Assembly: GCA_965603855.1 (NCBI GenBank) | Contig: OZ272519.1 | Span: 3,957,833-4,021,832 of the forward strand | DNA from: Alphaproteobacteria bacterium | GTDB taxonomy: Bacteria > Pseudomonadota > Alphaproteobacteria > UBA8366 > G965603855 | Direction of reading: 5' to 3' | DNA: 64,000 nt | Shown here: one piece after another, positions 15,860 to 46,048 of the stretch | How the letters are laid out: each line of letters opens with the position of its first letter | How positions within the stretch are numbered: position 1 is the stretch's first letter | Notes under the pieces: model-generated | The model's input: the letters and a program-made list of their open reading frames with translations, nothing else | Database searches by the model: none | Told to the model about the DNA's origin: nothing | Program-made: the position numbers and the translations under genes

Positions 15860-18742
15860 ATGGACGCCGCCGCTGACAAAGCCGAAACACTGTTGAAGGT
15901 GGTCGCCGCGCTGGCCGAGGAACTGCATCCGGGCCAGATGACAGACCGGCCGGTGACACTGGACAGCATGCTCGACCAGGACCTGGGCTTTGACAGTCTG
16001 GGACGGGTTGAACTGGTGCTGCGTGTGGAACGCACGTTCGACGTTACCGTGCCCGAACCGACCTTCGCCGCGATGGAAACGCCGCGGGACCTGCTGCAGG
16101 CGATCGTCGGCGCCCGTGGCGCGCGTGCCGCCATCGCCGCACCGGTGGTCGAAGCGGCGGGCCTGGGCGCTGCGGAGATCGCGCCGCACGAGGCCGACAC
16201 CCTGGTCGCGGTCCTGAACTGGCATGCCGCGCGCCATCCGGATCGGCCGCATCTCAGGATCTACAGCGACGAGGACGAGGGCGAAATCCTCACCTATGGC
16301 GCATTGCACAGCGAAGCGACGGCCGTCGCCAAGGGGCTCAGGCTCAGCGGCCTGCAGCCGGGCGAGGCCGTGGTCGTGATGCTGCCGACCGCGCGGGTCT
16401 ATTTTTCGACGTTTTTCGGCATCCTGCTGGCCGGCGGCGTTCCCGCGCCGATCTATCCGCCGCTCCGTCCCAGCCAGATCGAGGACCATCTCAAACGACA
16501 TGCGCGCATCGTCGAGAACTGCCGGGCCCGCCACATGGTCGTGGAGGACCAGGCCAAGCCGGTGGCGCGGCTGTTGCAGTCGCAGGTCGAGATCCTGCGT
16601 TTCGTCGCCACGCCGCAGGAACTGGCCGCCGCGGGGTCCGAGGCCGAGACCGATCTGCCGATGCGCGCGCCGCACGACACGGCGCTTCTGCAATACACAT
16701 CCGGCAGCACGGGAACGCCCAAGGGCGTCGTGCTGACCCACGCCAACCTTCTTGCCAACATCCGGTCCATGGCCCTGGCCATGAAGGTGACGTCCGAGGA
16801 CGTGTTCGTCAGCTGGCTGCCGCTGTACCACGACATGGGGCTGATCGGTGCCTGGTTGGGCAGCCTGGTCTATGCGGTCCATCTCGTGATCATGCCGCCG
16901 CTTGGTTTCCTGGCACGCCCGCAACGCTGGCTGACCGCGATCCACCGCTATCGCGGCACCCTGTCGGCGGCGCCGAACTTCGCCTACGAACTGTGCCTCA
17001 AACGAATCCCCGACGAGGCGCTTGGCGACCTGGATCTTGGGTCGTGGCGCGTCGCCTGCAACGGTGCGGAGGCGGTAAGCCCGCGAACCGTGGAACGGTT
17101 CTGCGAGCGTTTTGCGGCCTGTGGTTTCCGCCGCGAAGCGATGATGCCCGTCTACGGCCTTGCCGAATCGTCGGTGGGCGTCGCCTTTCCGCCGCTTGAC
17201 CGCGGCCCCCTGATCGACCGGATCACGCGCAAGGCGCTGATGACCGCCGGCAGGGCGGAACCGGCGGCCGAAGAAGACACCACCGCGCTGCGCTTCGTTG
17301 CCTGCGGTCGCCCGATCCCCGGCCACCAGGTCCGGGTCGTCGACGCCGCGGGCCGGGAACTGCCCGAACGCGAAGAAGGCCGGCTCCAGTTCACCGGCCC
17401 GTCGACGACGGCGGGCTATCTCAGGAATCCCGAAAAGACCCGCGAACTGTTCGACGGCGCATGGCTGGAATCCGGCGACCTGGCCTATATCGCCGGCGGC
17501 GACATCTTCATCACCGGCCGGACCAAGGACATCATCATCCACGCCGGCCGGAACATCTACCCGGAGGAACTGGAAGAGGCCGTCGGCGATCTGCCGGGCG
17601 TCCAGAAGGGCAATGTTGCCGTCTTCGGCAGCACCGATCCGGACACCGGCACGGAACGGCTGGTCGTGCTGGCCGAGACCCGCAAGCGCGCCGACAAGGA
17701 CCAGGCCGCGATCAGGAAACGCGTTAACGATCTCGCCGTCGATCTTGTCGGCACACCGCCCAACGACATTGTCCTGGCGCCGCCGCGCACGGTCCTGAAG
17801 ACTTCCAGCGGCAAGATCAGGCGTGCGGCGTGCCGCGATCTTTACGAAGGCGGTCTGATCGGCCGCAAGCGCCGTGCCCTGTGGTGGCAGGTCGTCCGGC
17901 TCGGCGCGGCCGGCCTGATGCCGCAGACCCGCCGATCGCTGCGGGCCCTGCATGGGCTGGCCTATGCGGTCTATGCCGGCATCGTCTTCGCCCTGGTCGC
18001 TTCGCCCCTATGGTTCGCCGTCGTCCTGTCGCCAGACGCCTGGCGGTGGGCAATCCTGGGGCGCGGGCTGAGAATATGGGCGTTCCTGTCGGGGATCCCC
18101 ATCGCGGTACGGGGCGTCGAGAACCTGCCGTCGCCCGCCACGCCCTGCGTGATGGTCTCCAACCACGCAAGCTATCTGGACGGGTTCGCCCTTGCCGCGA
18201 CGCTGCCCCGGCCCGCGCGTTTCGTCGCCAAGGCCGAACTGGTGGGACAGTGGCCGGCGAGGATCCCGCTCAACCGGATCGGCGCCGCCTTCATCGAACG
18301 GTTCGACAGCCGCAAGGGCGTGGAAGACGCAAAAGAGGTCGCCAAGACCGCCACCGGAGACCGCCCGCCGCTGTTCTTCGCGGAAGGGACCATCCGCCGC
18401 GAACCGGGTCTGTTGCCGTTTCACATGGGCGCGTTCGTCGCCGCAGCAGAGGCCGGTGTCCCGATCGTGCCGCTGACCATCCGCGGCACCCGCTCGATCC
18501 TGAGGCCCGACGGCTGGTTCCCGCGCAAGGGAACCGTCTCGGTCCTGATCGGCGCACCGATCGACCCGGCGACCTTCCAAGCCGAGACCGGCGGCGATCA
18601 CTGGGCCTTGGCGCTGAAATTGCGCGACGCGGCGCGCGCGGCGATCCTGCGACACTGCGGCGAGCCCGATCTCAGCCACGAGATGACGGCGGTCGCCGAC
18701 CTCGAACCGCCCGGCCCCGCTACTTCGTCTCCAGATCGGTGA
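15860..18742 (+). CDS. Fusion protein: acyl-carrier domain + fatty-acyl-AMP ligase + TM segment + PlsC-type (HX4D) acyltransferase
   Basis: 960-aa ORF. Carrier motif LGFDSLGRVEL (Ser46). Adenylation motifs LQYTSGSTGTPKGV, WLPLYHDMGLI, YGLAES, GDLAY and KTSSGKIRR. Hydrophobic helices at about aa 690-760. Acyltransferase blocks NHASYLD (His769/Asp774), FFAEGT and PIVPLTIRG. Confidence 0.9.
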   Translation: MDAAADKAETLLKVVAALAEELHPGQMTDRPVTLDSMLDQDLGFDSLGRVELVLRVERTFDVTVPEPTFAAMETPRDLLQAIVGARGARAAIAAPVVEAAGLGAAEIAPHEADTLVAVLNWHAARHPDRPHLRIYSDEDEGEILTYGALHSEATAVAKGLRLSGLQPGEAVVVMLPTARVYFSTFFGILLAGGVPAPIYPPLRPSQIEDHLKRHARIVENCRARHMVVEDQAKPVARLLQSQVEILRFVATPQELAAAGSEAETDLPMRAPHDTALLQYTSGSTGTPKGVVLTHANLLANIRSMALAMKVTSEDVFVSWLPLYHDMGLIGAWLGSLVYAVHLVIMPPLGFLARPQRWLTAIHRYRGTLSAAPNFAYELCLKRIPDEALGDLDLGSWRVACNGAEAVSPRTVERFCERFAACGFRREAMMPVYGLAESSVGVAFPPLDRGPLIDRITRKALMTAGRAEPAAEEDTTALRFVACGRPIPGHQVRVVDAAGRELPEREEGRLQFTGPSTTAGYLRNPEKTRELFDGAWLESGDLAYIAGGDIFITGRTKDIIIHAGRNIYPEELEEAVGDLPGVQKGNVAVFGSTDPDTGTERLVVLAETRKRADKDQAAIRKRVNDLAVDLVGTPPNDIVLAPPRTVLKTSSGKIRRAACRDLYEGGLIGRKRRALWWQVVRLGAAGLMPQTRRSLRALHGLAYAVYAGIVFALVASPLWFAVVLSPDAWRWAILGRGLRIWAFLSGIPIAVRGVENLPSPATPCVMVSNHASYLDGFALAATLPRPARFVAKAELVGQWPARIPLNRIGAAFIERFDSRKGVEDAKEVAKTATGDRPPLFFAEGTIRREPGLLPFHMGAFVAAAEAGVPIVPLTIRGTRSILRPDGWFPRKGTVSVLIGAPIDPATFQAETGGDHWALALKLRDAARAAILRHCGEPDLSHEMTAVADLEPPGPATSSPDR

Positions 18743-20795
18743 CGCCGTGCCAGGCAGTCCCGGGGGGATCCGCCGACAATGCCCGCGCCCGCCGGCCCAT
18801 CGCCGCGGCCGGGGGATCGGTGTCGGCAATCGCTTCGAAGCCCTGAGCCGCCTCGGCAAACCGTCCGTCCCGATAGGCCTCCAGCGCCCGCGCATAACGC
18901 GTCAGGCGTTCCATCGTCTCGGGCGCCACCCTGTCGGCCGGCCCGACAGGTTCGAACAACGTCACCGGCGCTGCGCGGCCGACGACACGCACCGTATCGA
19001 CCTCGCGCAGCAGCAGCGCACCATCGCAGGCGGCCGCCGTGGCGTCGCTGATCAGGATGTGGGTGCCATAGACCTTGTTCGCACTTTCCAGCCGCGCGGC
19101 GAGGTTCACGGCGTCGCCGATCACCGTGTAGTTCAGCCGGCGTGACGAGCCGATATTGCCCACCACCATGCGTCCGGAATTGATCCCGATACGGGTGCTG
19201 AGGTCGTTGTCGCCCAGTCGGGCCTGGCAGGCCAGCGCGGCCTCCACCGCGTGGCGCCGGTCGTCGTCATCCGCCACCGGCGCGCCGAACAGGGCCAGCA
19301 TGCCGTCGCCGTAATAGCGTTCCACATAGCCGTTGTAGGCCTCGATCACGTCGGTCATTTCGGTGAAATAGTCGTTCAACAGGGCGACCGTATCCTGCGG
19401 CGGCTTGTTCTCGGCGATCGAGGTGAACCCGGCCAGGTCCGAGAACAGCACGGTGATGTCCCGTTCCTCGCCGCCCAGCGCCGGCATCTCCCGGCTTTCG
19501 ACCAGCCGTTCCAACAGCTCGGGCGCCATGTAGTAGCCGAAGGCCTTGCGGATATGACGTTCGTCGCGGTCGATCACCGAGACCCGGAAGGCGCTGGCGG
19601 CGGCGAAGGTCAGGGCGCTGGCCAGCACCGGTTCGAACAGCGGCGGGTCGATGCCGCGGCCGAACAAGAAAACGGCGAGGCCCGACCAGACGAGACTGAC
19701 GACCAACCACGCCACCCCGGCGCCGACCGGGTGAAACCGCATCACGGCAAGGCCGCAGATCCCGGCCGCGGCCAGGACGACAAGAAACACCGCCCAGCCC
19801 GGCATCTCGCCCAGATAATCGCCGTTCAACAGGTTGCTGACCGCGGTCGCGTGCAGATAGACGCCGGGCACCGTGCCGCGCGCGACCAATTGATCGGCGC
19901 GCCGCGCCGGCAGGTTGTCGGTGCACGGCGCGGGCCAGCCTTCGCCGTCCGGCCGGGTCACCAGCCGCGCCGAGGACGGCACGCGATCCTCGGCATCCAG
20001 CACCGCTCCGAAGATCACGGTCTTTCCGGCGAAGGCGGATGTGAAGAATTCCGTGCGGTCCTGCTGTGCACAGTGCCACAGGTCGGCAAAGGAATAGGTC
20101 GGCACCGATCCCGGTGGCTGAAGATGGTTCAGAAGAAGGGCGTTGTCCTGCGCCTGGCGCAGCCCCGGCGAGATCTCGCCGGTCCTGCGGTGCCGGTTCG
20201 CCAGTTCCAGGGCGAAGGCCGGCTCGCTGACCAGTCCCCCCTCGGTTTCGCGCTGAACGAACAGCGGCACCGCGCGAACCACGCCGTCCGGATCGGTATG
20301 CAGGTTCAGCGAGCGGATGTTGATCGAATGCCCCACCGCCCAGCGCATCCGTTCGTGGGGCAGGATCGGCTCGTCGCCCAACTGCGTCGCGCCAAGCACG
20401 ATGCGCCCGTTCCTGCGTTCCTGGGACAGGATCCGCAACAGCGGCAGGTCGAAGCGCTGATCGCCCAGGAACCCCGCGGCAGAGGTGGGAAAGACGATAT
20501 CCCAGCCGATCACCGTCGGACCGGCCGCCAGAACCCGTTCCATCACGCCGGCGATCTGCGGCGCCCAGAGAACCCGCGGCACGCCCTTGAACGGCGGCGT
20601 GCGGTAGGTCAGCTCGTCGACCGCGATCACGGCGACGTCCTGCACCGCGCTTGGCCGGTCGATGCCCGCCGTGTCCCGCAGCCAGAACAGGATGTCCGTG
20701 CCCGACCGCATCACGTCGCGCGCCCAAGGCGTGCAGACACCCACGCTGAACGCGACCACGAACAAAGCAACGATCACCGCGTGGGTGCGCCGCAT
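18720..20795 (-). CDS. CHASE2-domain class III adenylate/guanylate cyclase
   Basis: 691-aa ORF. An N-terminal TM helix and a ~300-aa extracytoplasmic domain are followed by three TM helices. Cyclase core: ITVLFSDLAGFT, YYGDGMLALFG, YTVIGDAVNLAARLE. The C-terminal tail is TPR-like. The 3' end overlaps the convergent gene by 23 bp. Confidence 0.9.
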   Translation of the reverse strand: MRRTHAVIVALFVVAFSVGVCTPWARDVMRSGTDILFWLRDTAGIDRPSAVQDVAVIAVDELTYRTPPFKGVPRVLWAPQIAGVMERVLAAGPTVIGWDIVFPTSAAGFLGDQRFDLPLLRILSQERRNGRIVLGATQLGDEPILPHERMRWAVGHSINIRSLNLHTDPDGVVRAVPLFVQRETEGGLVSEPAFALELANRHRRTGEISPGLRQAQDNALLLNHLQPPGSVPTYSFADLWHCAQQDRTEFFTSAFAGKTVIFGAVLDAEDRVPSSARLVTRPDGEGWPAPCTDNLPARRADQLVARGTVPGVYLHATAVSNLLNGDYLGEMPGWAVFLVVLAAAGICGLAVMRFHPVGAGVAWLVVSLVWSGLAVFLFGRGIDPPLFEPVLASALTFAAASAFRVSVIDRDERHIRKAFGYYMAPELLERLVESREMPALGGEERDITVLFSDLAGFTSIAENKPPQDTVALLNDYFTEMTDVIEAYNGYVERYYGDGMLALFGAPVADDDDRRHAVEAALACQARLGDNDLSTRIGINSGRMVVGNIGSSRRLNYTVIGDAVNLAARLESANKVYGTHILISDATAAACDGALLLREVDTVRVVGRAAPVTLFEPVGPADRVAPETMERLTRYARALEAYRDGRFAEAAQGFEAIADTDPPAAAMGRRARALSADPPGTAWHGVTDLETK

Positions 20796-20934
20796 GGCTC
20801 AGGAAAGGGCGGACCGGCAGGAAACGGGCATGGCGCGATTATGGCGCGCGGCGCCTGACGCAACCACTGTTTTACCGTCAGCCGACGCCTCGCGCCGCTT
20901 GACGCACGGTTCCGGGCGCGGGTACTCACCGGCC

Positions 20935-21840
20935 ATGACGCGGCAAGCAGACACGGGCGGGCGCGGCCCGGCAATCGGCGAGATGCGGATCGACGGTGTC
21001 CTGTTCGAGCGGCGCCCCCTGGGCGACGCGGTCCCGGTGGTCTTCGACTCGCCGCACAGCGGCACGGACTACCCGGCCGACTTCGGCACCATCGTCCCGC
21101 CAGAGCGGCTGCGCCAGGCCGAAGACATGTATGTGGACGCTCTGTTTTCCTCCGCGCCCGAGAATGGCGCGGTCTTGCTGGGCGCGCTCTTCCCGCGCAG
21201 CTATATCGACCCGAACCGCGGGCTCGCCGACCTGGATCCCGACCTGATCCGCGGCGCCTGGCCCGACGCGGTGACGCCCGGCGCGAAGACGGCCCTGGGT
21301 GTTGGGCTGATCTGGCGGAACGAACCGACCGGCGGGCCGATGTACGACCGCAAGCTGAGCGTGGCAGAGGCGCGAAACCGCATCGACGGGTTCTACCGCC
21401 CCTATCACGACCGGCTGCGCGCGGCCTTGGACGAGGCCCGCACACGGCACGGGGCGGTCTGGCATCTCAACTGCCATTCCATGCCGTCGACCAGCGGCCC
21501 CCTGTCGCCGGAAGGCCCCGACGTTTCGCGGCCCCAGTTCAACCTGGGCGACCGGGACGGCACCACCTGCGATCCGGGTTTCACCGCCTTCGTCCGCCGC
21601 ACCATCGAGGGCCTGGGCTATCAATGCACCGTCAACGATCCCTACAAGGGGGTCGAGCTTGTGCGGGCCTATTCGGATCCGGCGGCAAACCGCCACAGCC
21701 TGCAGATCGAGATCAGCCGCGCGCTTTATATGGACGAGGCAACGTTCGCCAGAACCGCGGGTTTCAAAAGGCTGCAGGCCGACCTCGGCCGGCTGATCGA
21801 GGCGATCGTCGGATACGCCAAACGGAACCGCGCGGCCTGA
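20935..21840 (+). CDS. N-formylglutamate amidohydrolase-family protein
   Basis: In-frame part of track ORF 20662-21840 with ATG at 20935. Contains VVFDSPHSGTDYPADF and WHLNCHSM, typical of the FGase family. Confidence 0.75.
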   Translation: MTRQADTGGRGPAIGEMRIDGVLFERRPLGDAVPVVFDSPHSGTDYPADFGTIVPPERLRQAEDMYVDALFSSAPENGAVLLGALFPRSYIDPNRGLADLDPDLIRGAWPDAVTPGAKTALGVGLIWRNEPTGGPMYDRKLSVAEARNRIDGFYRPYHDRLRAALDEARTRHGAVWHLNCHSMPSTSGPLSPEGPDVSRPQFNLGDRDGTTCDPGFTAFVRRTIEGLGYQCTVNDPYKGVELVRAYSDPAANRHSLQIEISRALYMDEATFARTAGFKRLQADLGRLIEAIVGYAKRNRAA

Positions 21841-21853
21841 CCGGCCGCAACGA

Positions 21854-22738
21854 TCATTCCTCCAGCCCGTTCGTCTGGTACTGGGCGGTGATCATCGACG
21901 GCGTCAGCATTTCGCCGAAACCGCGCGCAACCGCATCCTCGAAATCCTCGCGGATGGCGCGCGCGACAGCCGCCTTGAGCGGGGCTTCGTCGGCAAAGGA
22001 CGTGAAGTAGGTCATGTCTTTCAACGCGTTCGCGATGGAGAACCGCATCCGTTCCAGATCGCCCTCCACGGCGCCGCCGGCGATCAATTGGAACAGTCCG
22101 CTGTTCACGCCGCCGGCCGAAATCAGGTCGTACAGGACCTGCGCATCGATGCCCGCCGCGCGGCACGCCGCGAATGCCTCGGCCGTGACCGTCACCTGGC
22201 TCATCGCCATGAAGTTGTTGATCAGCTTCAGCGTGTGCCCGGCGCCCACCGGCCCGACACGGAAGATGTTCTCGCAGAACGCCCGAAGCACCGGCTCGAC
22301 CTTGGCGTAGGTCTCCTCCGGCCCGCCGACGATCGCGTTCAGGGTTCCCTTCTCAGCCTCGATCGGGGTGCGGGTCAGCGGCGCGTCGAGGTATTCGCAG
22401 CCCGCCTCGGCAAGGGCGGCGGCGATCTTCTCGCTCGACGACGGCAAGCTGGTGGAGCAATCGATCACGATCAGACCCGGCCGGGCGCCGTCCAGGATCC
22501 CGTTCTCGCCGAAAATGCAGGCCTCGACCTGCGGGCTTCCGGAAACGCACAGAATGACCACGTCCGACGCCTCGGCCACCCCGCACGGATCGGCCGCCTC
22601 GGTCGCGCCAAGGCCCATCAGCCGTTCCAAAGGCGCCCGGTTGCGGTGCGCCATCCCGGTCACGGCGAAGCCCTTTTCCAAGAGGTTCTTCGCCATGCCG
22701 GCCCCCATCATGCCAAGGCCGATAAAGCCAACCTTCAT
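21854..22738 (-). CDS. NAD(P)-dependent 3-hydroxyisobutyrate/6-phosphogluconate-dehydrogenase-like oxidoreductase
   Basis: Track ORF 21854-22798. The ATG at complement 22738 gives MKVGFIGLGMMGAGMAKNL (Rossmann GxGxxG). Confidence 0.85.
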   Translation of the reverse strand: MKVGFIGLGMMGAGMAKNLLEKGFAVTGMAHRNRAPLERLMGLGATEAADPCGVAEASDVVILCVSGSPQVEACIFGENGILDGARPGLIVIDCSTSLPSSSEKIAAALAEAGCEYLDAPLTRTPIEAEKGTLNAIVGGPEETYAKVEPVLRAFCENIFRVGPVGAGHTLKLINNFMAMSQVTVTAEAFAACRAAGIDAQVLYDLISAGGVNSGLFQLIAGGAVEGDLERMRFSIANALKDMTYFTSFADEAPLKAAVARAIREDFEDAVARGFGEMLTPSMITAQYQTNGLEE

Positions 22739-22901
22739 AGTCCCCTCCCTGTTGCCTCTTCGTTCGCGGGCCAGGCGGTGGACTAGACCAAGCGCCACCC
22801 AATGTCAAAAAAGTGCATTGCGCGGCGACGGATCGGGGGCATCCCTCCCGTGTATGGGGGGAAAGCCGCCGCCGGGCGGCACCGAGACAAGGAGACCGGA
22901 A

Positions 22902-23378
22902 ATGCAGCACTTCCCACGGTTTGGCAGCCGTCTTGCCCTGGTGGGCGTCCTTACCGTCGCCCTGACGTCGGGCATGGCCTTGGCCCAGGGCGGGCGCGGC
23001 AACGGCGGCCCCGACGGCGACGATCGCGGCCGGCCGTCGATGGCCCAGCGGATGATCGAGTTCCTGGACACCAACGGCGACGGCGCAATCAGCCTCGATG
23101 AAATCGCCGCCGAGCAGGACCGGCTGTTCGTCGCCGCCGACGTCGACGGCGACGGCAAGCTTTCCGTCGAGGAGTTCCGCCGCCGGGGCCAGTGGTTCCA
23201 GCGTCTGCGGACAACCACGCTGTTCGATCTTACCGACGTCGACGGCGACATGGCTGTGGCGCCCGACGAGATAAAATCTCCGTCCGCGCGCTGGTTCGCC
23301 CGTTATGATGCCAACGGCGACGGCAAGATCGAGGCCAGCGAACTGCCCCAGCGTTCGTGGCGCCGCGGACGTCGCTGA
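22902..23378 (+). CDS. Secreted EF-hand calcium-binding protein (four EF loops)
   Basis: In-frame part of track ORF 22368-23378. The ATG at 22902 is preceded by AAGGAG. Signal peptide MQHFPRFGSRLALVGVLTVALTSGMALAQG. Four EF loops: DTNGDGAISLDE, DVDGDGKLSVEE, DVDGDMAVAPDE, DANGDGKIEASE. Confidence 0.8.
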   Translation: MQHFPRFGSRLALVGVLTVALTSGMALAQGGRGNGGPDGDDRGRPSMAQRMIEFLDTNGDGAISLDEIAAEQDRLFVAADVDGDGKLSVEEFRRRGQWFQRLRTTTLFDLTDVDGDMAVAPDEIKSPSARWFARYDANGDGKIEASELPQRSWRRGRR

Positions 23379-23412
23379 GCGTCGGGCAGAGAGGAGTCCT
23401 GTTGCGTTCCGG

Positions 23413-24000
23413 ATGGACCCGCGGGAGCTGAAGCGGCCGGACGACCGCACGGTGGATGACGAGCTCATCCGCCGTGTGGCCGATGGCGACACGACGGCGT
23501 GGCCGAAACTGGTCGAACGCCATGCCGCGCCCATCACGGCCTGTGCGTGGCGCATGCTGGGCGATCGCGCCGAGGCGGAGGATGTCACCCAGGAGGCGTT
23601 TCTGCGGCTGTTCCGCAAGGCGAACGACTGGCGCCCCGGCGGCCCGCAATTGCGAACCTGGCTGATCCGCGTCGCGACCAACCTGTGCATCGACCGGGCC
23701 CGCAGCCGACGCACCGTGCCGATGGATGTCGTGCAACTGGACGAGATCGCGCTGGGCGAGGACGCGCCGCAGCAGACGCGTTTGGATCAACAGCGGGCAT
23801 TGGGCGCGGCCCTGTCCAGCCTGCCGGTCCGCCAGCGCGGCGCCGTCGTCCTGGTCCACCACCAGGGCCTGAGCCAGCGCGAGGCCGCGGACGCCCTGGG
23901 CGTCAGCGTCGAAGCCTTGGAGTCCCTGTTGTCCCGCGCCCGCCGCAGTCTCAAGCGCCAGCTTTCGCCGTTGCTGGAGGATCTCCTGTCGGGGCCATAA
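23413..24000 (+). CDS. ECF-type RNA polymerase sigma-70 factor
   Basis: In-frame part of track ORF 23305-24000 with ATG at 23413. Region 2: AEDVTQEAFLRLF ... TWLIRVATNLCIDRAR. Region 4: LPVRQRGAVVLVHHQGLSQREAADALGVSVEALESLLSRARRSLK. Confidence 0.85.
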   Translation: MDPRELKRPDDRTVDDELIRRVADGDTTAWPKLVERHAAPITACAWRMLGDRAEAEDVTQEAFLRLFRKANDWRPGGPQLRTWLIRVATNLCIDRARSRRTVPMDVVQLDEIALGEDAPQQTRLDQQRALGAALSSLPVRQRGAVVLVHHQGLSQREAADALGVSVEALESLLSRARRSLKRQLSPLLEDLLSGP

Positions 24001-24045
24001 GGGCGCGCCGCATAAGAGGGCATGAGTTGTCGAAGGAATGAAGAG

Positions 24046-24606
24046 ATGAGCATGAACGAGACACGCCTGGAAGCCATCATCGACGCCTACGGCGCCGCGC
24101 CCGAACGCTGGCCGAACGCCGAGCGGGCGGCCGCGCTCGCGCTGTTGAAACGGTCGGACCGGGCGCGCATCGCATGGGTCGAAGCGGCCGCACTGGACTC
24201 GCTCATGGTCGGCGAGGAGCCCCCCCAGCCTTCGGGAGATCTGATGGGGCGCTTGCAGGCCATTGGGGAAACGACCGAAACGCCCCGCCGGCCGGCGAAA
24301 GCCCGGCCCTTGTTCGGCGGCTTTCTGGAGCCGGTGCGCGCGCCTGCGGTCGCCGCGTTCGCGGCCATCGCCCTGGCGTTCGTGGCCGGCCTGGCGGTGC
24401 CGACCTCCTTCGGCACTCTGCAAACCGATACCGGCGCACCGGCCGTCGTGGTCCAGGGCGGCGGCGCCGCGCTGCCGGCGGCCGATGACGACACGGTGGC
24501 GCTCGTCGACAGTTGGCTTGAGGACGCCGACGAAGAGGAGTTCGATGCAAGCGACGCGGACGATGCGGACCTTGAACTGGCGATCCTGGATCTGGAACTC
24601 GATTGA
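24046..24606 (+). CDS. Putative single-pass anti-sigma factor with acidic extracytoplasmic tail
   Basis: Track ORF 24022-24606; start taken at the ATG at 24046 (24052 is also possible). It lies 45 bp downstream of the sigma gene. One TM helix (PAVAAFAAIALAFVAGLAVP). The C-terminal ~40 aa are very acidic (DDDTVALVDSWLEDADEEEFDASDADDADLELAILDLELD). The role is inferred from position and topology only. Confidence 0.5.
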   Translation: MSMNETRLEAIIDAYGAAPERWPNAERAAALALLKRSDRARIAWVEAAALDSLMVGEEPPQPSGDLMGRLQAIGETTETPRRPAKARPLFGGFLEPVRAPAVAAFAAIALAFVAGLAVPTSFGTLQTDTGAPAVVVQGGGAALPAADDDTVALVDSWLEDADEEEFDASDADDADLELAILDLELD

Positions 24607-24624: not shown

Positions 24625-25758
24625 TCAGCCCATGCCCTCCAGGTCGACCTTCAGCGCAAAGAACTTCAACAGGTCCTTCAGGGAAATCAAACCGACCAGC
24701 TGATCGTCGCGCAGCACCATCAACCGGCTGTTGCCCGTCGACTGCATCTTCGACAGAGCCCGGATGGCATCGGCCTCCGGCGCGACCGTGTTGTCCCGGT
24801 CAAGCGGGATCATCACCTCTGCGGCGCGAACCCGCCCCCAGGAGTCGCGCGGCACCGCCGCCACCTGTCGGGTCGTCAGCCCGCCGATCGGCCGCGTGCC
24901 TTCCAACACCGGAAAGAAGTCGTGGTGGTGGACATAGACGTAATCCTCGACGAAACGGTCCAGGGTCAGATCGGGCGACACCGAGATCACCGGTGTCGAC
25001 ATGAACCGTTCCACGGTTTCGCCTTCCAGCGCGCGGCGTGTTGCCAACTGATAGACCGACGCGTTCGCCGCACCGCGCATGAACAGCCCGATCAGGCACC
25101 ACCACAAGCCACCGACCACGTTGCCGCCGACGAAGTTCATGATCCCGACAGCGATCAGCACCAAGCCGAACGTCGAGCCCATCTGCGCGGCCTGCCGCGT
25201 CGCACTGCGATAATCGCCGCGCCAATGCCACAGCGCGGCGCGCAGGGCGCGGCCGCCGTCCAGCGGGAAGGCCGGCACCAGATTGAAGCCGCCCAGGATG
25301 ACGTTGATCAGCGCCAGGTATTCCGCGACGCCGACGATCGTTACGGGAAGCGCGCGCGCCTCCGCCGCGCTGCCGATGGCGTAGAAGGCCGCGGCCAGGA
25401 TGAAACTGGCGATCGGGCCGGCGATCGCCATGAAAAACTCCGCCCGCGGGCCGGGCGGTTCCTCGTCCATCTCCGCAACGCCGCCGAAAATAAACAGCGT
25501 GATCCCCTTGATCGGGATCTGGAAGTGGCGCGCCACCAGCGAATGGGACAGTTCGTGAAAGACGATCGAGAAGGCGAGCCCCAAGAGCCCGACAAACCCC
25601 ATCCACCAATAGGCCGCCTGGGTCAGGCCCTCGTACCGTGACGGGAAATAGCCAACCGCCAGGGACCAGGTGACCAGCACCGCCAACAGCGCCCAGCTTA
25701 TGTCGACATGGACCTTGAAACCGAACAACTCGAACAAGGCCAGGCGTTTACCGAACAT
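24625..25758 (-). CDS. Site-2 protease (M50) family zinc metalloprotease with C-terminal CBS pair
   Basis: 377-aa ORF. HELSHSL (HExxH) lies in a TM helix, with the second motif NLVPAFPLDGGR. Multiple TM helices. The C-terminal region has CBS-like repeats. Confidence 0.85.
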   Translation of the reverse strand: MFGKRLALFELFGFKVHVDISWALLAVLVTWSLAVGYFPSRYEGLTQAAYWWMGFVGLLGLAFSIVFHELSHSLVARHFQIPIKGITLFIFGGVAEMDEEPPGPRAEFFMAIAGPIASFILAAAFYAIGSAAEARALPVTIVGVAEYLALINVILGGFNLVPAFPLDGGRALRAALWHWRGDYRSATRQAAQMGSTFGLVLIAVGIMNFVGGNVVGGLWWCLIGLFMRGAANASVYQLATRRALEGETVERFMSTPVISVSPDLTLDRFVEDYVYVHHHDFFPVLEGTRPIGGLTTRQVAAVPRDSWGRVRAAEVMIPLDRDNTVAPEADAIRALSKMQSTGNSRLMVLRDDQLVGLISLKDLLKFFALKVDLEGMG

Positions 25759-25848: not shown

Positions 25849-26337
25849 TCAGGCCCGGCGCCGCGAACGGCGCGATCGCCGCCGCGCGTAATAGACGCCG
25901 TAAAGCCCCCGCCCGCCGCGCATGCCAAAGGTAAAACGATAGACCACCATGCCCGCCAGCATGGCGCCGCAGAAGATCAGCGGGGCCGCGGTGCCGGTGC
26001 CGAGCGCGGCCAAGGCGGTTGCCGGGCTGAACCCGATCAGGCCCCAGCCGGCGCCGAAGATGGCGGCGCCGGCAATCACCCGCCAGTCGATGCGCCGGCG
26101 GCCGGGCAGACGGTACTCAGTGGCAAACAGGGGCACGGACCGCTTCCCGACCAGTGCAAAGGACGGCGTCGCCACCACAAGCGCACCGACCAGCACCAAC
26201 AGAAGCGACGGGTCCCAGCCCCGCGAGACATCCAGGAACGCGACGACCGCGGCCGGATCGATCACGCCGGATAGCGTCAGGCCCGCGCCGAACAAAAGTC
26301 CCGCAAGCGCCGCGACGACGGTTTCGCGCGCGCTCAC
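25849..26337 (-). CDS. YeeE/YedE-family (DUF6691-like) small membrane protein
   Basis: 162-aa ORF with four hydrophobic helices and the glycine-rich blocks GLLFGAGLTLSG and FGAGWGLIGFSP. It overlaps the upstream paralogue by 4 bp. Confidence 0.7.
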   Translation of the reverse strand: MSARETVVAALAGLLFGAGLTLSGVIDPAAVVAFLDVSRGWDPSLLLVLVGALVVATPSFALVGKRSVPLFATEYRLPGRRRIDWRVIAGAAIFGAGWGLIGFSPATALAALGTGTAAPLIFCGAMLAGMVVYRFTFGMRGGRGLYGVYYARRRSRRSRRRA

Positions 26338-26766
26338 GGCGACACCCCCGGAAACACGCGCTCAATGTAGACCGCGGCCACGGCCGACAGCACGAACAGC
26401 GCCGTCGCCACGATCGAACGGCGTGCGAACCGCGCCAGCCCGCAGACCGCGTGGCCGCTGCAACTGCCATCGCCCAGTCGCGCCCCGAAACCGACCGCAA
26501 GGCCCGCGGCGACCAGAGTGGCCGTCGGCGCGTCGACCGTGATTTCGGGGACCGACAGTCCGCCCAGGCGGCACAGAAACGGCGCCGCGATGATGCCGCC
26601 CAGAAACGCCATTCGCGGCCCGGAACCGCTGAGCGGGCCGCGCAGCATGGCGCCGATCACCGTGCTGGTGCTGGCCGCGCGGCCGTTGAAGAACAGCAAC
26701 AGCGCGACCGCGAGACCGATCAAAAGTCCGCCAACGAGAGCCTGCAGGGAGGGAAACAGATCCATG
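26334..26766 (-). CDS. YeeE/YedE-family small membrane protein
   Basis: In-frame part of track ORF 26334-27191 with the ATG at complement 26766 (MDLFPSLQALVGGLLIGL). Contains the GFGARLGDGCSGHAVCG-type block (here GFGARLGDGSCSGHAVCGLAR). Confidence 0.7.
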
Positions 26767-26881
26767 GGACCGACTGATGCGGCGCGCCGGCGCCGCTGGA
26801 ACCCGGCGCCGCGACACGCGGTTTGCTTGGCCCGCAAACCTAAGCGACAACGCCGCGGACTGTCCATGCCCGCGCAGCGGC

Positions 26882-27502
26882 TCAGGTCCAGGCGGCGATC
26901 ACTTCGTCGGCCAGAACCGTTTCGATCTGCATGTCGAAGCGCGCGACAACGGAATTCAGGCTGGCGGCATGGCCTTCCGGCGAGGAACTGGTCACGGCAT
27001 CGACGACCAGGATGACCCGCAGACCGCGGTCGACCGCCGACAAGGCGGTCGCCAGGACGCAGACGTCGGTTTCCACCCCCGTCAGGATCACAGTATCGCA
27101 TCGCCGCTCCTGGAGATGCCGGTTGAAGGCGGCACTTTCGAAGGCGGAATGGGTTGTCTTGTCGATCACCACGGCGGGCGGGCAGCACCACTCCAGCGGT
27201 TCCACGATGTCCAGCATCTCCGCGCCCATCGCCTCGGTCGTGTAGGCGCGCCAGCGTTCGTAATAGGCCTGCCAGCGGCCGGTCGCCGCCTCCGGCCGCG
27301 GCGGCGTCACGAAACGGGTGAAAACCGTGTGTTCCGGCTGCGCGTTGGCCAGCCTGCCGATTGCCGGGACGATCTCCATCAGGCCCGGCGTGAACCAGTC
27401 GCCGGGTGCTGCGAACAGCCTTTGCATGTCCACCGACACGTGCAGCGCCCGATTTCCAGGCGCCCCGAACATCAGTTTGGTTATCCGAATGTTAACCGAC
27501 AT
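26882..27502 (-). CDS. Isochorismatase-family cysteine hydrolase
   Basis: Track ORF 26882-27523 starts at a GTG; an ATG lies at 27502. ALHVSVDMQRLF (substrate-pocket Asp region) and TVILTGVETDVCVLATA (catalytic Cys block) are present. Confidence 0.75.
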   Translation of the reverse strand: MSVNIRITKLMFGAPGNRALHVSVDMQRLFAAPGDWFTPGLMEIVPAIGRLANAQPEHTVFTRFVTPPRPEAATGRWQAYYERWRAYTTEAMGAEMLDIVEPLEWCCPPAVVIDKTTHSAFESAAFNRHLQERRCDTVILTGVETDVCVLATALSAVDRGLRVILVVDAVTSSSPEGHAASLNSVVARFDMQIETVLADEVIAAWT

Positions 27503-45961: not shown

Positions 45962-46048
45962 TGGTGCCCCCGGGGAGACTCGAACTCCCACTCCGTTGCC
46001 GGAAACAGATTTTGAGTCTGCCGCGTCTACCAATTCCGCCACAGGGGC
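45962..46048 (-). tRNA. tRNA-Leu (anticodon CAA)
   Basis: Folded by hand from the reverse complement GCCCCTGTGGCGGAATTGGTAGACGCGGCAGACTCAAAATCTGTTTCCGGCAACGGAGTGGGAGTTCGAGTCTCCCCGGGGGCACCA. The acceptor stem is 7 bp with one G-U pair. The D arm is GCG/CGC with a GG-containing loop. The anticodon stem GCAGA/TCTGT carries the loop CT-CAA-AA. The variable arm is long (15 nt, class II). The T arm is GGGAG-TTCGAGT-CTCCC, and the CCA end is encoded. Confidence 0.9.

Follow-up and report, generated by a model that had tools for sequence, protein, structure and literature searches.

How bacteria sense external Ca2+ and convert it into transcription is still poorly understood, and the only EF-hand/extracytoplasmic function (ECF) sigma factor circuit described, that of Caulobacter in 2026, comes without a defined membrane component. 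A stretch of 64,000 nucleotides from an alphaproteobacterial genome (contig OZ272519.1; hereafter the window, or its 64 kb) carries a possible circuit of this kind. At positions 22902–24606, the open reading frame (ORF) list and the sequence place three genes on the + strand, separated by 34 nt and 45 nt and encoding a secreted four-EF-hand protein, an ECF sigma factor, and a single-pass membrane protein; all three proteins are called with identical starts in a public protein collection. Our analysis favors, with only a little more confidence than doubt, a three-gene, probably autoregulated PRK05602-like ECF sigma/anti-sigma operon that has the periplasmic EF-hand protein as its apparent sensor partner.

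The strand, order, and spacing of the three genes had been given in a preliminary description of this DNA and were confirmed, as were its signal peptide and four canonical EF loops (identical to those quoted), its sigma factor regions 2 and 4 (by Pfam and TIGR02937), and its single-pass protein with an Asp/Glu-rich end of about 40 amino acids. The same description had proposed a Ca2+- or cation-responsive envelope-signaling module. This proposal is partly supported, by a conserved EF-hand neighbor, a sigma/anti-sigma pairing, and a precedent in Caulobacter; the Ca2+ part of it is what we infer. ECF systems with a separate periplasmic sensor are already known, and coupling of an EF-hand protein to an ECF sigma factor was recently reported in Caulobacter. 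The window holds an EF-hand-only variant, with an enlarged polyacidic tail, of a sigma/anti-sigma family that is widespread and whose periplasmic partners can be exchanged.

Proteins of the three-gene operon

The third protein contains a single hydrophobic helix (aa 99–118, KD19 2.34), with basic residues before the helix and none after it, and ends in a 68-aa tail whose 20 acidic residues (Asp/Glu, 19 of them in the last 40 aa) are offset by no Lys, Arg, or His. Searches of Pfam and NCBIfam gave no match at E ≤ 0.1; the protein has no Cys and no His, hence no HxxxCxxC zinc motif, and no Pfam match to zf-HC2. An AlphaFold2 (AF2) model showed helices at residues 5–15, 24–36, 38–55, and 64–76, followed by the transmembrane helix and a short tail, with block-mean predicted local distance difference test (pLDDT) scores of 95–98 (residues 1–50), 82 (51–60), 90 (61–70), and 76 (71–80). 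The tail was modeled as disordered, with a short terminal helix, LELAILDL.

A first search with this protein returned 11 relatives only, and a profile search of 1.84 billion cluster representatives revealed a family of 6,100 representatives at E ≤ 1e-3, of which 3,511 reach E ≤ 1e-10. The conserved part of the family is confined to the N-terminal 60–75 residues (RL..L..AYGAAPERWP..ER..A...L..S..AR....EAAALD.LL), a cytoplasmic domain carrying the family motif YGAAPERWP...EAAALD and the invariant columns Y15, G16, A17, W22, P23, A47, and D51; beyond it come a transmembrane helix and a short tail that evolves fast. The acidic tail is a family trait, not one peculiar to the window gene. Many of these tails, including that of the window (24574–24603), end in acidic and hydrophobic residues (EEDLL, DEDLL, LDLELD, DIPLT, AIPLD), which may form a docking or protease-recognition motif.

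The anti-sigma-like gene is immediately preceded by an ECF sigma gene in 71/71 loci, across phyla, these being the loci with enough upstream sequence among 16 genome and 80 metagenome loci fetched by the family motif. The sigma stop and anti-sigma start codons often overlap in relatives (e.g., L101–L103), against the 45-nt gap of the window. This adjacency is the strongest argument for an anti-sigma role. The layout of the third protein is, as modeled, that of single-pass class I anti-sigma factors. Whereas the topology features and the adjacency to sigma are directly seen, gene context and the model suggest that the protein is the cognate anti-sigma factor and that it would bind sigma through its N-terminal domain.

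The sigma protein matched the Pfam families Sigma70_r2 (3.6e-19, 68.8 bits) and Sigma70_r4_2 (5.3e-12, 45.6 bits), and scored 97.4 bits against the TIGR02937 sigma70-ECF model (cut-off 42.9). Its top NCBIfam model was PRK05602/NF004113, at 198.7 bits, just under the cut-off of 208. The same model ranked first for the sigma factors of all 10 diverse related loci compared (181–281 bits), of which seven passed the cut-off (208.6–281) and three scored 181–186. Because the window sigma factor scores just under the cut-off and part of its relatives pass, it is best placed as a peripheral member or close sister of the PRK05602 family. Similarity to CnrH (4cxf_A) was distant (57 bits).

The EF-hand protein begins with a signal-peptide-like N-terminus (hydrophobic core at residues 11–29, with the junction ALA/QG after residue 28), and a common N-terminal architecture is found in all of its orthologs. 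Pfam matches were far beyond chance (EF-hand_5, E = 1e-19, 69.4 bits against a cut-off of 25.9; EF-hand_1, E = 4.7e-19; EF-hand_7, E = 6e-13, the pair scoring 49.4 bits against a cut-off of 30), and all four loops fit the 12-residue pattern DxDxDGxxxxxE in a regular-expression scan. The mature form has about 130 aa and a pI of 4.8, with basic segments at FRRRG (aa 92–96) and at the C-terminal SWRRGRR. Its ortholog group shares 33 invariant columns over 8 loci (..EFRRRG..F..FD..D..GD...E...P..RWF.RYD...DG) and a basic C-terminus. A profile search recovered at least 865 database relatives, with no recognizable Caulobacter protein among the best 120 matches.

In the AF2 model, the protein forms two EF-hand pairs, with block-mean pLDDT of ~79–91 for residues 51–100, 72–89 for residues 111–150, and a dip to 62 between them. 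The best structural matches in the PDB were the lanmodulins 8dq2, 8fnr, and 8fns (E = 7.5e-5 to 3.3e-4, template modeling (TM) score 0.60–0.69, 26–29% identity). The protein is predicted to be periplasmic and to bind Ca2+; judged from its sequence, it is a conserved ortholog and no chance neighbor of the sigma gene.

Promoter and periplasmic partners across related loci

Our comparison set comprised 106 related loci. For the scoring of flanks, loci were grouped by anti-sigma sequence into 62 clusters. Word-pair enumeration gave GCGACGGAT or GCGCAGGAT, a 13–14 nt spacer, and CCGT(G/T)nAA. The strict motif CG[AC][AC]GG..-N13-14-CCGT occurred upstream of the first operon gene in 20/39 clusters, compared with 4/39 for the reverse complement and a mean of 2.5 for shuffles. 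It preceded the EF-hand gene in 11 of the 21 clusters in which that gene is present, and the sigma gene in 9/18 clusters without it; relaxed matching found the motif at the equivalent relative position in most of the remaining clusters. A position weight matrix (PWM) trained without the window returned 22817–22861 as the top match of the 64 kb on both strands (23.5 vs. 17.1 for the next), and at four loci outside the training set (L102, L103, L105, and L106) the locus-wide top match lay 70–90 nt before the EF-hand start codon.

At the level of sequence, the conservation and position of this promoter are established. Its conservation with the sigma group suggests that it is sigma-dependent, and transcription would start near 22861–22863, ~40 nt before the ATG. 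Since the conserved promoter precedes the EF-hand gene and not the sigma gene, the EF-hand gene heads a probably autoregulated operon. The region between the EF-hand and sigma genes contained the family motif in 2/26 clusters, no more than expected by chance, and lacks it in the window; an internal promoter before sigma, as in Caulobacter, was rejected as not conserved, although a promoter of another type is possible there. A simple scan between the three operon genes found neither a sigma-70-type promoter nor a terminator-like site. Further regulon members were sought in the window and rejected: the next-best promoter scores were 17 or less, and the best of these sites (31229, −) falls inside a 926-aa ORF, as expected of chance matches.

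EF-hand neighbors were scored when a gene with at least two EF-hand loops lay on the same strand directly upstream of sigma. Such a gene was present in 24/42 evaluable clusters, from Alpha- and Gammaproteobacteria and a Binatia metagenome-assembled genome (MAG), with four to six loops in most clusters and two loops in one subfamily. Five further orthologs of the window EF-hand protein (L101, L102, L103/L104, L105, and L106) were chosen by EF-hand similarity and long contigs, blind to their neighbors, and all five were followed by sigma and by a member of the anti-sigma family. The preliminary description had proposed to ask whether EF-hand proteins are conserved neighbors of this group of sigma factors, and both sets of loci answer in the affirmative.

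A second accessory gene, for a membrane-anchored PF13801 "Metal_resist" protein (CnrX family, LTXXQ-like), follows the anti-sigma gene in 46/52 evaluable clusters; 11 examples were called by Pfam and the remainder by a custom hidden Markov model (HMM). Examples of this gene at +2 after the anti-sigma gene, among loci L005–L100, are L009:5392-5892 and L017:5480-6025. No PF13801-like ORF is present anywhere in the 64 kb of the window, in which the gene after the anti-sigma gene is a convergent M50 protease gene. The lineage of the window and about five others have lost the PF13801 gene. Among clusters with both flanks visible, 16 have both accessory genes, five the EF-hand gene only, 16 the PF13801 gene only, and none lacks both, so that every PF13801-less cluster carries an EF-hand gene.

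The periplasmic tails of the anti-sigma family fall into three types. Type A tails, the form seen in most relatives, are acidic, Cys-free, and 24–42 aa long, and the PF13801 gene is present. Those of type B have ~67–76 aa, the motif YxTPTDxLL...GCxDxxLGCP, and two Cys, with PF13801 at +2 and always a two-EF-hand protein (example loci L008:3971-5525, L026:1341-3133, and L053:2539-4007). Type C tails, 64–70 aa long and Cys-free, with 11–21 acidic and 0–1 basic residues, occur without PF13801 and always with a four-EF-hand protein. The window tail is of type C, as are those at the loci of the five EF-hand orthologs chosen blind to their neighbors, and is two to three times as long as a type A tail. 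Tails of 64–70 aa with 11–21 acidic residues are restricted to PF13801-less clusters, and all PF13801-less clusters have them. The EF-hand ortholog group of the window also occurs in PF13801-bearing type A loci (L011, L033, and L064).

In type B, the two-EF-hand proteins have a C-terminal tail that is rich in Gly, Arg, and Pro and contains one Cys, and the cognate anti-sigma tails carry a Cys pair. This co-variation suggests direct contact, via a disulfide or a shared metal site. That EF-hand type matches tail type is, at present, the strongest hint that the two proteins are directly linked in function and possibly in physical contact.

A gene pair that looks DUF1800/DUF1501-like when read from the sequence follows the sigma/anti-sigma/PF13801 module in Caballeronia and in an alphaproteobacterial MAG, which are unrelated (L007:5979-8562 and L015:6758-8961), and could be a regulon target.

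Proposed calcium signaling and competing readings

The arrangement of the locus suggests the following sequence of events. Transcription from the conserved ECF-type promoter (22825–22855) would run through the EF-hand, sigma, and anti-sigma genes. The EF-hand protein would be exported by Sec and would fold into a compact, lanmodulin-like four-EF-hand domain. The anti-sigma protein would sit N-in, its four-helix cytoplasmic domain holding sigma and its 68-aa disordered polyacidic tail in the periplasm. The EF-hand protein would have taken the place of a CnrX-like PF13801 protein as partner of the acidic tail; such a role is likely because PF13801 has been lost, the EF-hand gene is always kept, the tail is longer, and the FRRRG and RRGRR segments are basic. 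Ca2+ occupancy of the EF-hands would change the interaction with the tail, altering anti-sigma stability or conformation and releasing sigma, which would re-induce the operon, with the extra EF-hand protein feeding back on the signal. The operon is thus pictured as a switch that probably changes expression with external Ca2+ or a similar metal, Ca2+ being the presumed cue. By analogy with Caulobacter, Ca2+ limitation and/or acid would be more likely as the inducing condition than Ca2+ excess.

If this reading is true, Ca2+ would join the signals read by ECF systems, and the locus would illustrate how a single sigma/anti-sigma chassis can be fitted with different periplasmic sensor modules. The locus and its more than 100 relatives form a compact, genetically tractable three-gene system for extracytoplasmic Ca2+ sensing, with a defined promoter usable as a reporter. 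Lineages with the EF-hand gene only, the CnrX-like gene only, or both provide a natural experiment, and the pairing of basic EF-hand protein tails with acidic anti-sigma tails is a structural prediction.

The described circuit to which the window can be likened is that of Caulobacter vibrioides, in which the ECF gene sigV (CCNA_02837) is immediately preceded by cabp (CCNA_02838). The cabp product is a periplasmic protein of 133 aa that depends on Sec and has three EF-hands, and both genes are induced by EGTA and by acid (dos Santos & Simao 2026, PMC13171946). The two genes each influence the other's expression, the level of CaBP affects sigV, and a mutual regulatory loop was proposed, with the membrane link between CaBP and SigV, "possibly an anti-sigma factor", left unidentified by the authors (PMC13171946). 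The cabp promoter has the sequence GGAAA-N13-CGTTCA, with a transcription start mapped 40 nt before the ATG, and a separate sigV promoter was reported within the 3′ end of cabp (PMC13171946). A literature search by Caulobacter locus tag returned PMC13171946 only.

In both systems, the gene for a secreted multi-EF-hand protein immediately precedes an ECF sigma gene of the same orientation, with an intergenic gap of 29 nt in Caulobacter (deduced from PMC13171946) vs. 34 nt in the window. A promoter of the GGAA-N13-CGT type with a start ~40 nt before the ATG fits the geometry of the window, a likeness that is suggestive only, and the motif of several relatives is exactly ..GGAA.-N13-CGTTCA/CGTTGA, as in the cabp promoter. 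CaBP differs in length and number of recognized EF-hands (133 aa and three, vs. 158 aa and four), and the window has a conserved anti-sigma candidate where none was identified for CaBP–SigV. It has an atypical Arg at position 6 of one loop, where the window has Met and several orthologs have Arg. sigV was termed "previously undescribed", yet its deletion and overexpression strains were credited to Lourenco & Gomes 2009, the sigmaE–ChrR paper (PMC13171946); CCNA_02837 may be the sigmaE of that paper or a distinct factor, which bears on the Caulobacter comparison.

The anti-sigma family of the window is a candidate, by analogy, for the missing membrane link between CaBP and SigV; it is large and has no Pfam or NCBIfam model. 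A bolder version of this proposal, which we advance tentatively and with clearly more doubt than confidence, is that the unannotated family (~6,100 clusters, with YGAxxxRWP, one transmembrane helix, and an acidic tail) is the missing membrane link of a widespread Ca2+-sensing pathway, with a lanmodulin-like EF-hand protein replacing the CnrX-like sensor and docking through its basic segments on the polyacidic tail. If so, it would give the first defined molecular path by which periplasmic Ca2+ acts on an ECF sigma factor.

The CnrYXH system of Cupriavidus metallidurans (ECF291) resembles the window in its small single-pass anti-sigma factor with a very short periplasmic tail and in its separate periplasmic metal-binding protein, and a CnrX-family (PF13801) gene is also found in relatives of the window locus. 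CnrH shares its transcript with CnrX and CnrY, and CnrX controls the stability or conformation of CnrY. The two systems differ in gene order (cnrY-cnrX-cnrH vs. EF-hand, sigma, anti-sigma, and then PF13801 in relatives), in the anti-sigma domain (the short class II domain of CnrY vs. four predicted helices over ~76 aa), and in the accessory protein, which in the window is an EF-hand protein instead of a PF13801 protein. A neighboring metal efflux operon of the CnrYXH type has no counterpart in the window flanks, which contain no efflux genes.

ECF281 and ECF290 are ECF20-derived proteobacterial groups in which the anti-sigma gene occupies +1 and is followed, at +2, by a gene for a "heavy-metal resistance protein" (PF13801), the anti-sigma factors being of zinc-finger type in ECF281 and RskA-like in ECF290 (Casas-Pastor et al. 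2021, PMC7826278). PF13801 at +2 is also the arrangement of the 46/52 related clusters, but it is absent from the window, and the window anti-sigma protein, with no Cys or His motif and no Pfam match, is neither of zinc-finger type nor RskA-like when compared with the published descriptions of the groups. The main text of PMC7826278 has no mention of EF-hand proteins (or an EF-hand gene at −1) or of calcium; a literature search for ECF281, ECF290, or PF13801 returned this paper only. In Pseudomonas aeruginosa, the EF-hand protein EfhP (PA4107) senses Ca2+ outside the cytoplasm and influences ECF sigma regulons, with signaling via anti-sigma factors being the authors' hypothesis (PMC11559002). 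The likeness to the window lies in the EF-hand motif; no sigma/anti-sigma pair accompanies efhP, which is under the control of the two-component system CarSR.

Several observations weigh against a Ca2+-sensing role of the EF-hand protein. The reading is drawn from gene content and models. EF loop 3 has Met at position 6 in place of the usual Gly, with Arg, Gln, or Gly in orthologs. The internal sigV promoter reported in Caulobacter has no conserved counterpart in the window family, and the two systems are likened by published description. For the anti-sigma assignment itself, a PDB sequence-profile search with the third protein gave nothing relevant, Foldseek of its model against the PDB gave nothing significant (RslA 3hug_B ranked third, E = 5.3, TM score 0.58), and hhalign against Escherichia coli RseA gave 0.5% probability. 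The rule that absence of PF13801 implies presence of the EF-hand gene is drawn from five unbiased clusters (one-sided hypergeometric p ~0.05), further support coming from five lineages that were ascertained via the EF-hand protein. Finally, the EF-hand gene is absent from 16 clusters, and acidic tails are seen whether or not it is present. The family can therefore do without the EF-hand protein, which could be an output instead of an input.

According to this alternative, which we consider rather unlikely, the EF-hand protein is the first regulon member, e.g., a periplasmic Ca2+ buffer or envelope stabilizer, and the signal is sensed by the tail or by an unlinked factor. The main effector of an ECF system is often encoded within its operon, and the EF-hand gene is co-transcribed behind a probably sigma-dependent promoter; the acidic tails of the 16 clusters without it also fit an output. 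Against this stand the lack of any cluster without both periplasmic accessory genes, the presence of the EF-hand gene exactly where the CnrX-like partner is missing, and the co-variation of tail type with EF-hand protein type. In Caulobacter, moreover, the level of CaBP affects sigV expression (PMC13171946). Were the EF-hand protein only an output, the locus would reduce to an autoregulated ECF operon of the usual kind whose first gene is unusual. Autoregulation is, however, compatible with sensing, as seen in the co-transcription of CnrX and CnrY with CnrH.

Another alternative, which we judge unlikely, makes the convergent CBS-type site-2 protease a dedicated intramembrane protease that degrades the window anti-sigma protein. 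The preliminary description had noted this gene and cautioned against giving it a role on position alone; Pfam bore out the assignment (Peptidase_M50, 4e-25, 88.9 bits; CBS, 8e-13, 48.9 bits), and the caution was right. Its catalytic motifs are intact (HELSH and NxxPxxxLDGG, here NLVPAFPLDGG), and SpoIVFB, an M50 protease with CBS that activates a sigma factor in Bacillus, provides a precedent; anti-sigma cleavage is, however, normally performed by PDZ-type RseP. The gene adjoins the module in the clade of the window (L001–L004 and L021–L024) and in the sister clade L103/L104, which keeps the EF-hand/sigma/anti-sigma/M50–CBS block although both flanks differ from those of the window (L103:5253-6455). 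It is beside the module in none of the other lineages, including the long-tail loci L010, L101, L102, L105, and L106 and the 16 genome loci L005–L020, and a family-wide partnership was rejected. With adjacency in two clades only, the protease is a clade-specific possibility at most. The gene is convergent, with 18 nt between its stop codon and that of the anti-sigma gene, and is not co-transcribed with it; it shows 73–86% identity across these clades, as a housekeeping neighbor would, vs. ~50% for the anti-sigma protein.

Quite improbable, in our assessment, is that the module senses another metal (a lanthanide or heavy metal), with lanmodulin-like metal binding by the EF-hand protein and low-affinity cation binding by the polyacidic tail. 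Lanmodulin is also a small periplasmic alphaproteobacterial four-EF-hand protein and is the nearest structural match of the window model; there is, in addition, a weak match to the NCBIfam LanM model (NF053806), but its 37.6 bits fall far short of the cut-off of 135. Methylorubrum LanM loops typically have Pro at position 2. The position-2 residues of the window loops are T, V, V, and A, with no Pro in any, and an acidic residue at position 9 occurs in one loop only, the loops being of canonical Ca2+ type. Lanmodulin also belongs to a context of lanthanide uptake and methanol dehydrogenase, vs. the sigma/anti-sigma context of the window. A heavy metal is suggested by the "heavy-metal resistance" gene of relatives, the CnrX-like PF13801, and by the published association of heavy-metal stress with the groups derived from ECF20 (Casas-Pastor et al. 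2021, PMC7826278), but PF13801 owes its name to CnrX, and the name is uninformative as to what the proteins of these relatives bind.

That the third gene encodes no anti-sigma factor, its adjacency to sigma being chance or purely syntenic, is highly improbable: although no known anti-sigma domain was matched in sequence or fold, the 71/71 adjacency across phyla with its commonly overlapping stop and start codons, the single-pass anti-sigma architecture of the model, and the conserved cytoplasmic domain vs. the fast-evolving tail all argue for such a factor.

Feature coordinates and genomic surroundings

The features of the operon and its promoter are collected below.

Table 1. Coordinates, within the window, of the features of the EF-hand/sigma/anti-sigma locus.
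Feature	Position	Strand	Basis or remark
-35-like element, GCGACGGAT	22825..22833	+	conserved ECF-type motif
-10-like element, CCGTGTAT, 14 nt after the -35-like element	22848..22855	+	conserved ECF-type motif
Ribosome-binding site AGGAG of the EF-hand gene	22890..22894	+	7 nt before start, direct reading
Gene for secreted four-EF-hand protein, 158 aa	22902..23378	+	Pfam EF-hand families
Predicted Sec signal peptide, aa 1–28, cleavage after ALA	22902..22985	+	sequence only
EF loop 1, DTNGDGAISLDE, aa 56–67	23067..23102	+	canonical 12-residue loop
EF loop 2, DVDGDGKLSVEE, aa 80–91	23139..23174	+	canonical 12-residue loop
EF loop 3, DVDGDMAVAPDE, aa 112–123	23235..23270	+	12-residue loop, Met at position 6
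EF loop 4, DANGDGKIEASE, aa 136–147	23307..23342	+	canonical 12-residue loop
ECF sigma factor gene, 195 aa, regions 2 and 4	23413..24000	+	Pfam, NCBIfam
Single-pass anti-sigma-like gene, 186 aa	24046..24606	+	hydropathy, model, sigma adjacency
Cytoplasmic N-terminal domain, aa 1–76, presumed sigma-binding	24046..24273	+	AF2, family motif
Transmembrane helix, aa 99–118	24340..24399	+	hydropathy; AF2 helix 101–116
Predicted periplasmic polyacidic tail, aa 119–186	24400..24603	+	composition, AF2
M50 site-2 protease with CBS pair, convergent; module membership uncertain	24625..25758	-	Pfam

Scans of the window with Rfam and for tRNA genes gave no match close to the three-gene locus; a tRNA-Leu(CAA) gene at 45962–46048 (−) was the sole RNA family match in the 64 kb. 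Upstream of the module lie a gene of the N-formylglutamate amidohydrolase family (20662–21840, +) and a 3-hydroxyisobutyrate/6-phosphogluconate dehydrogenase-like gene (21854–22798, −), both syntenic with the module in the closest relatives only (L001–L004). A 691-aa membrane protein with a CHASE2 sensor and an adenylate/guanylate cyclase domain is encoded two genes upstream of the module (18720–20795, −). Downstream of the protease are two genes for small Gly/Ala-rich multi-pass membrane proteins (25849–27191, −). In the relative L004, one counterpart of this pair is annotated as DUF6691 and its partner is unannotated; the two look like a YeeE/YedE-type transporter pair, as a candidate assignment only.

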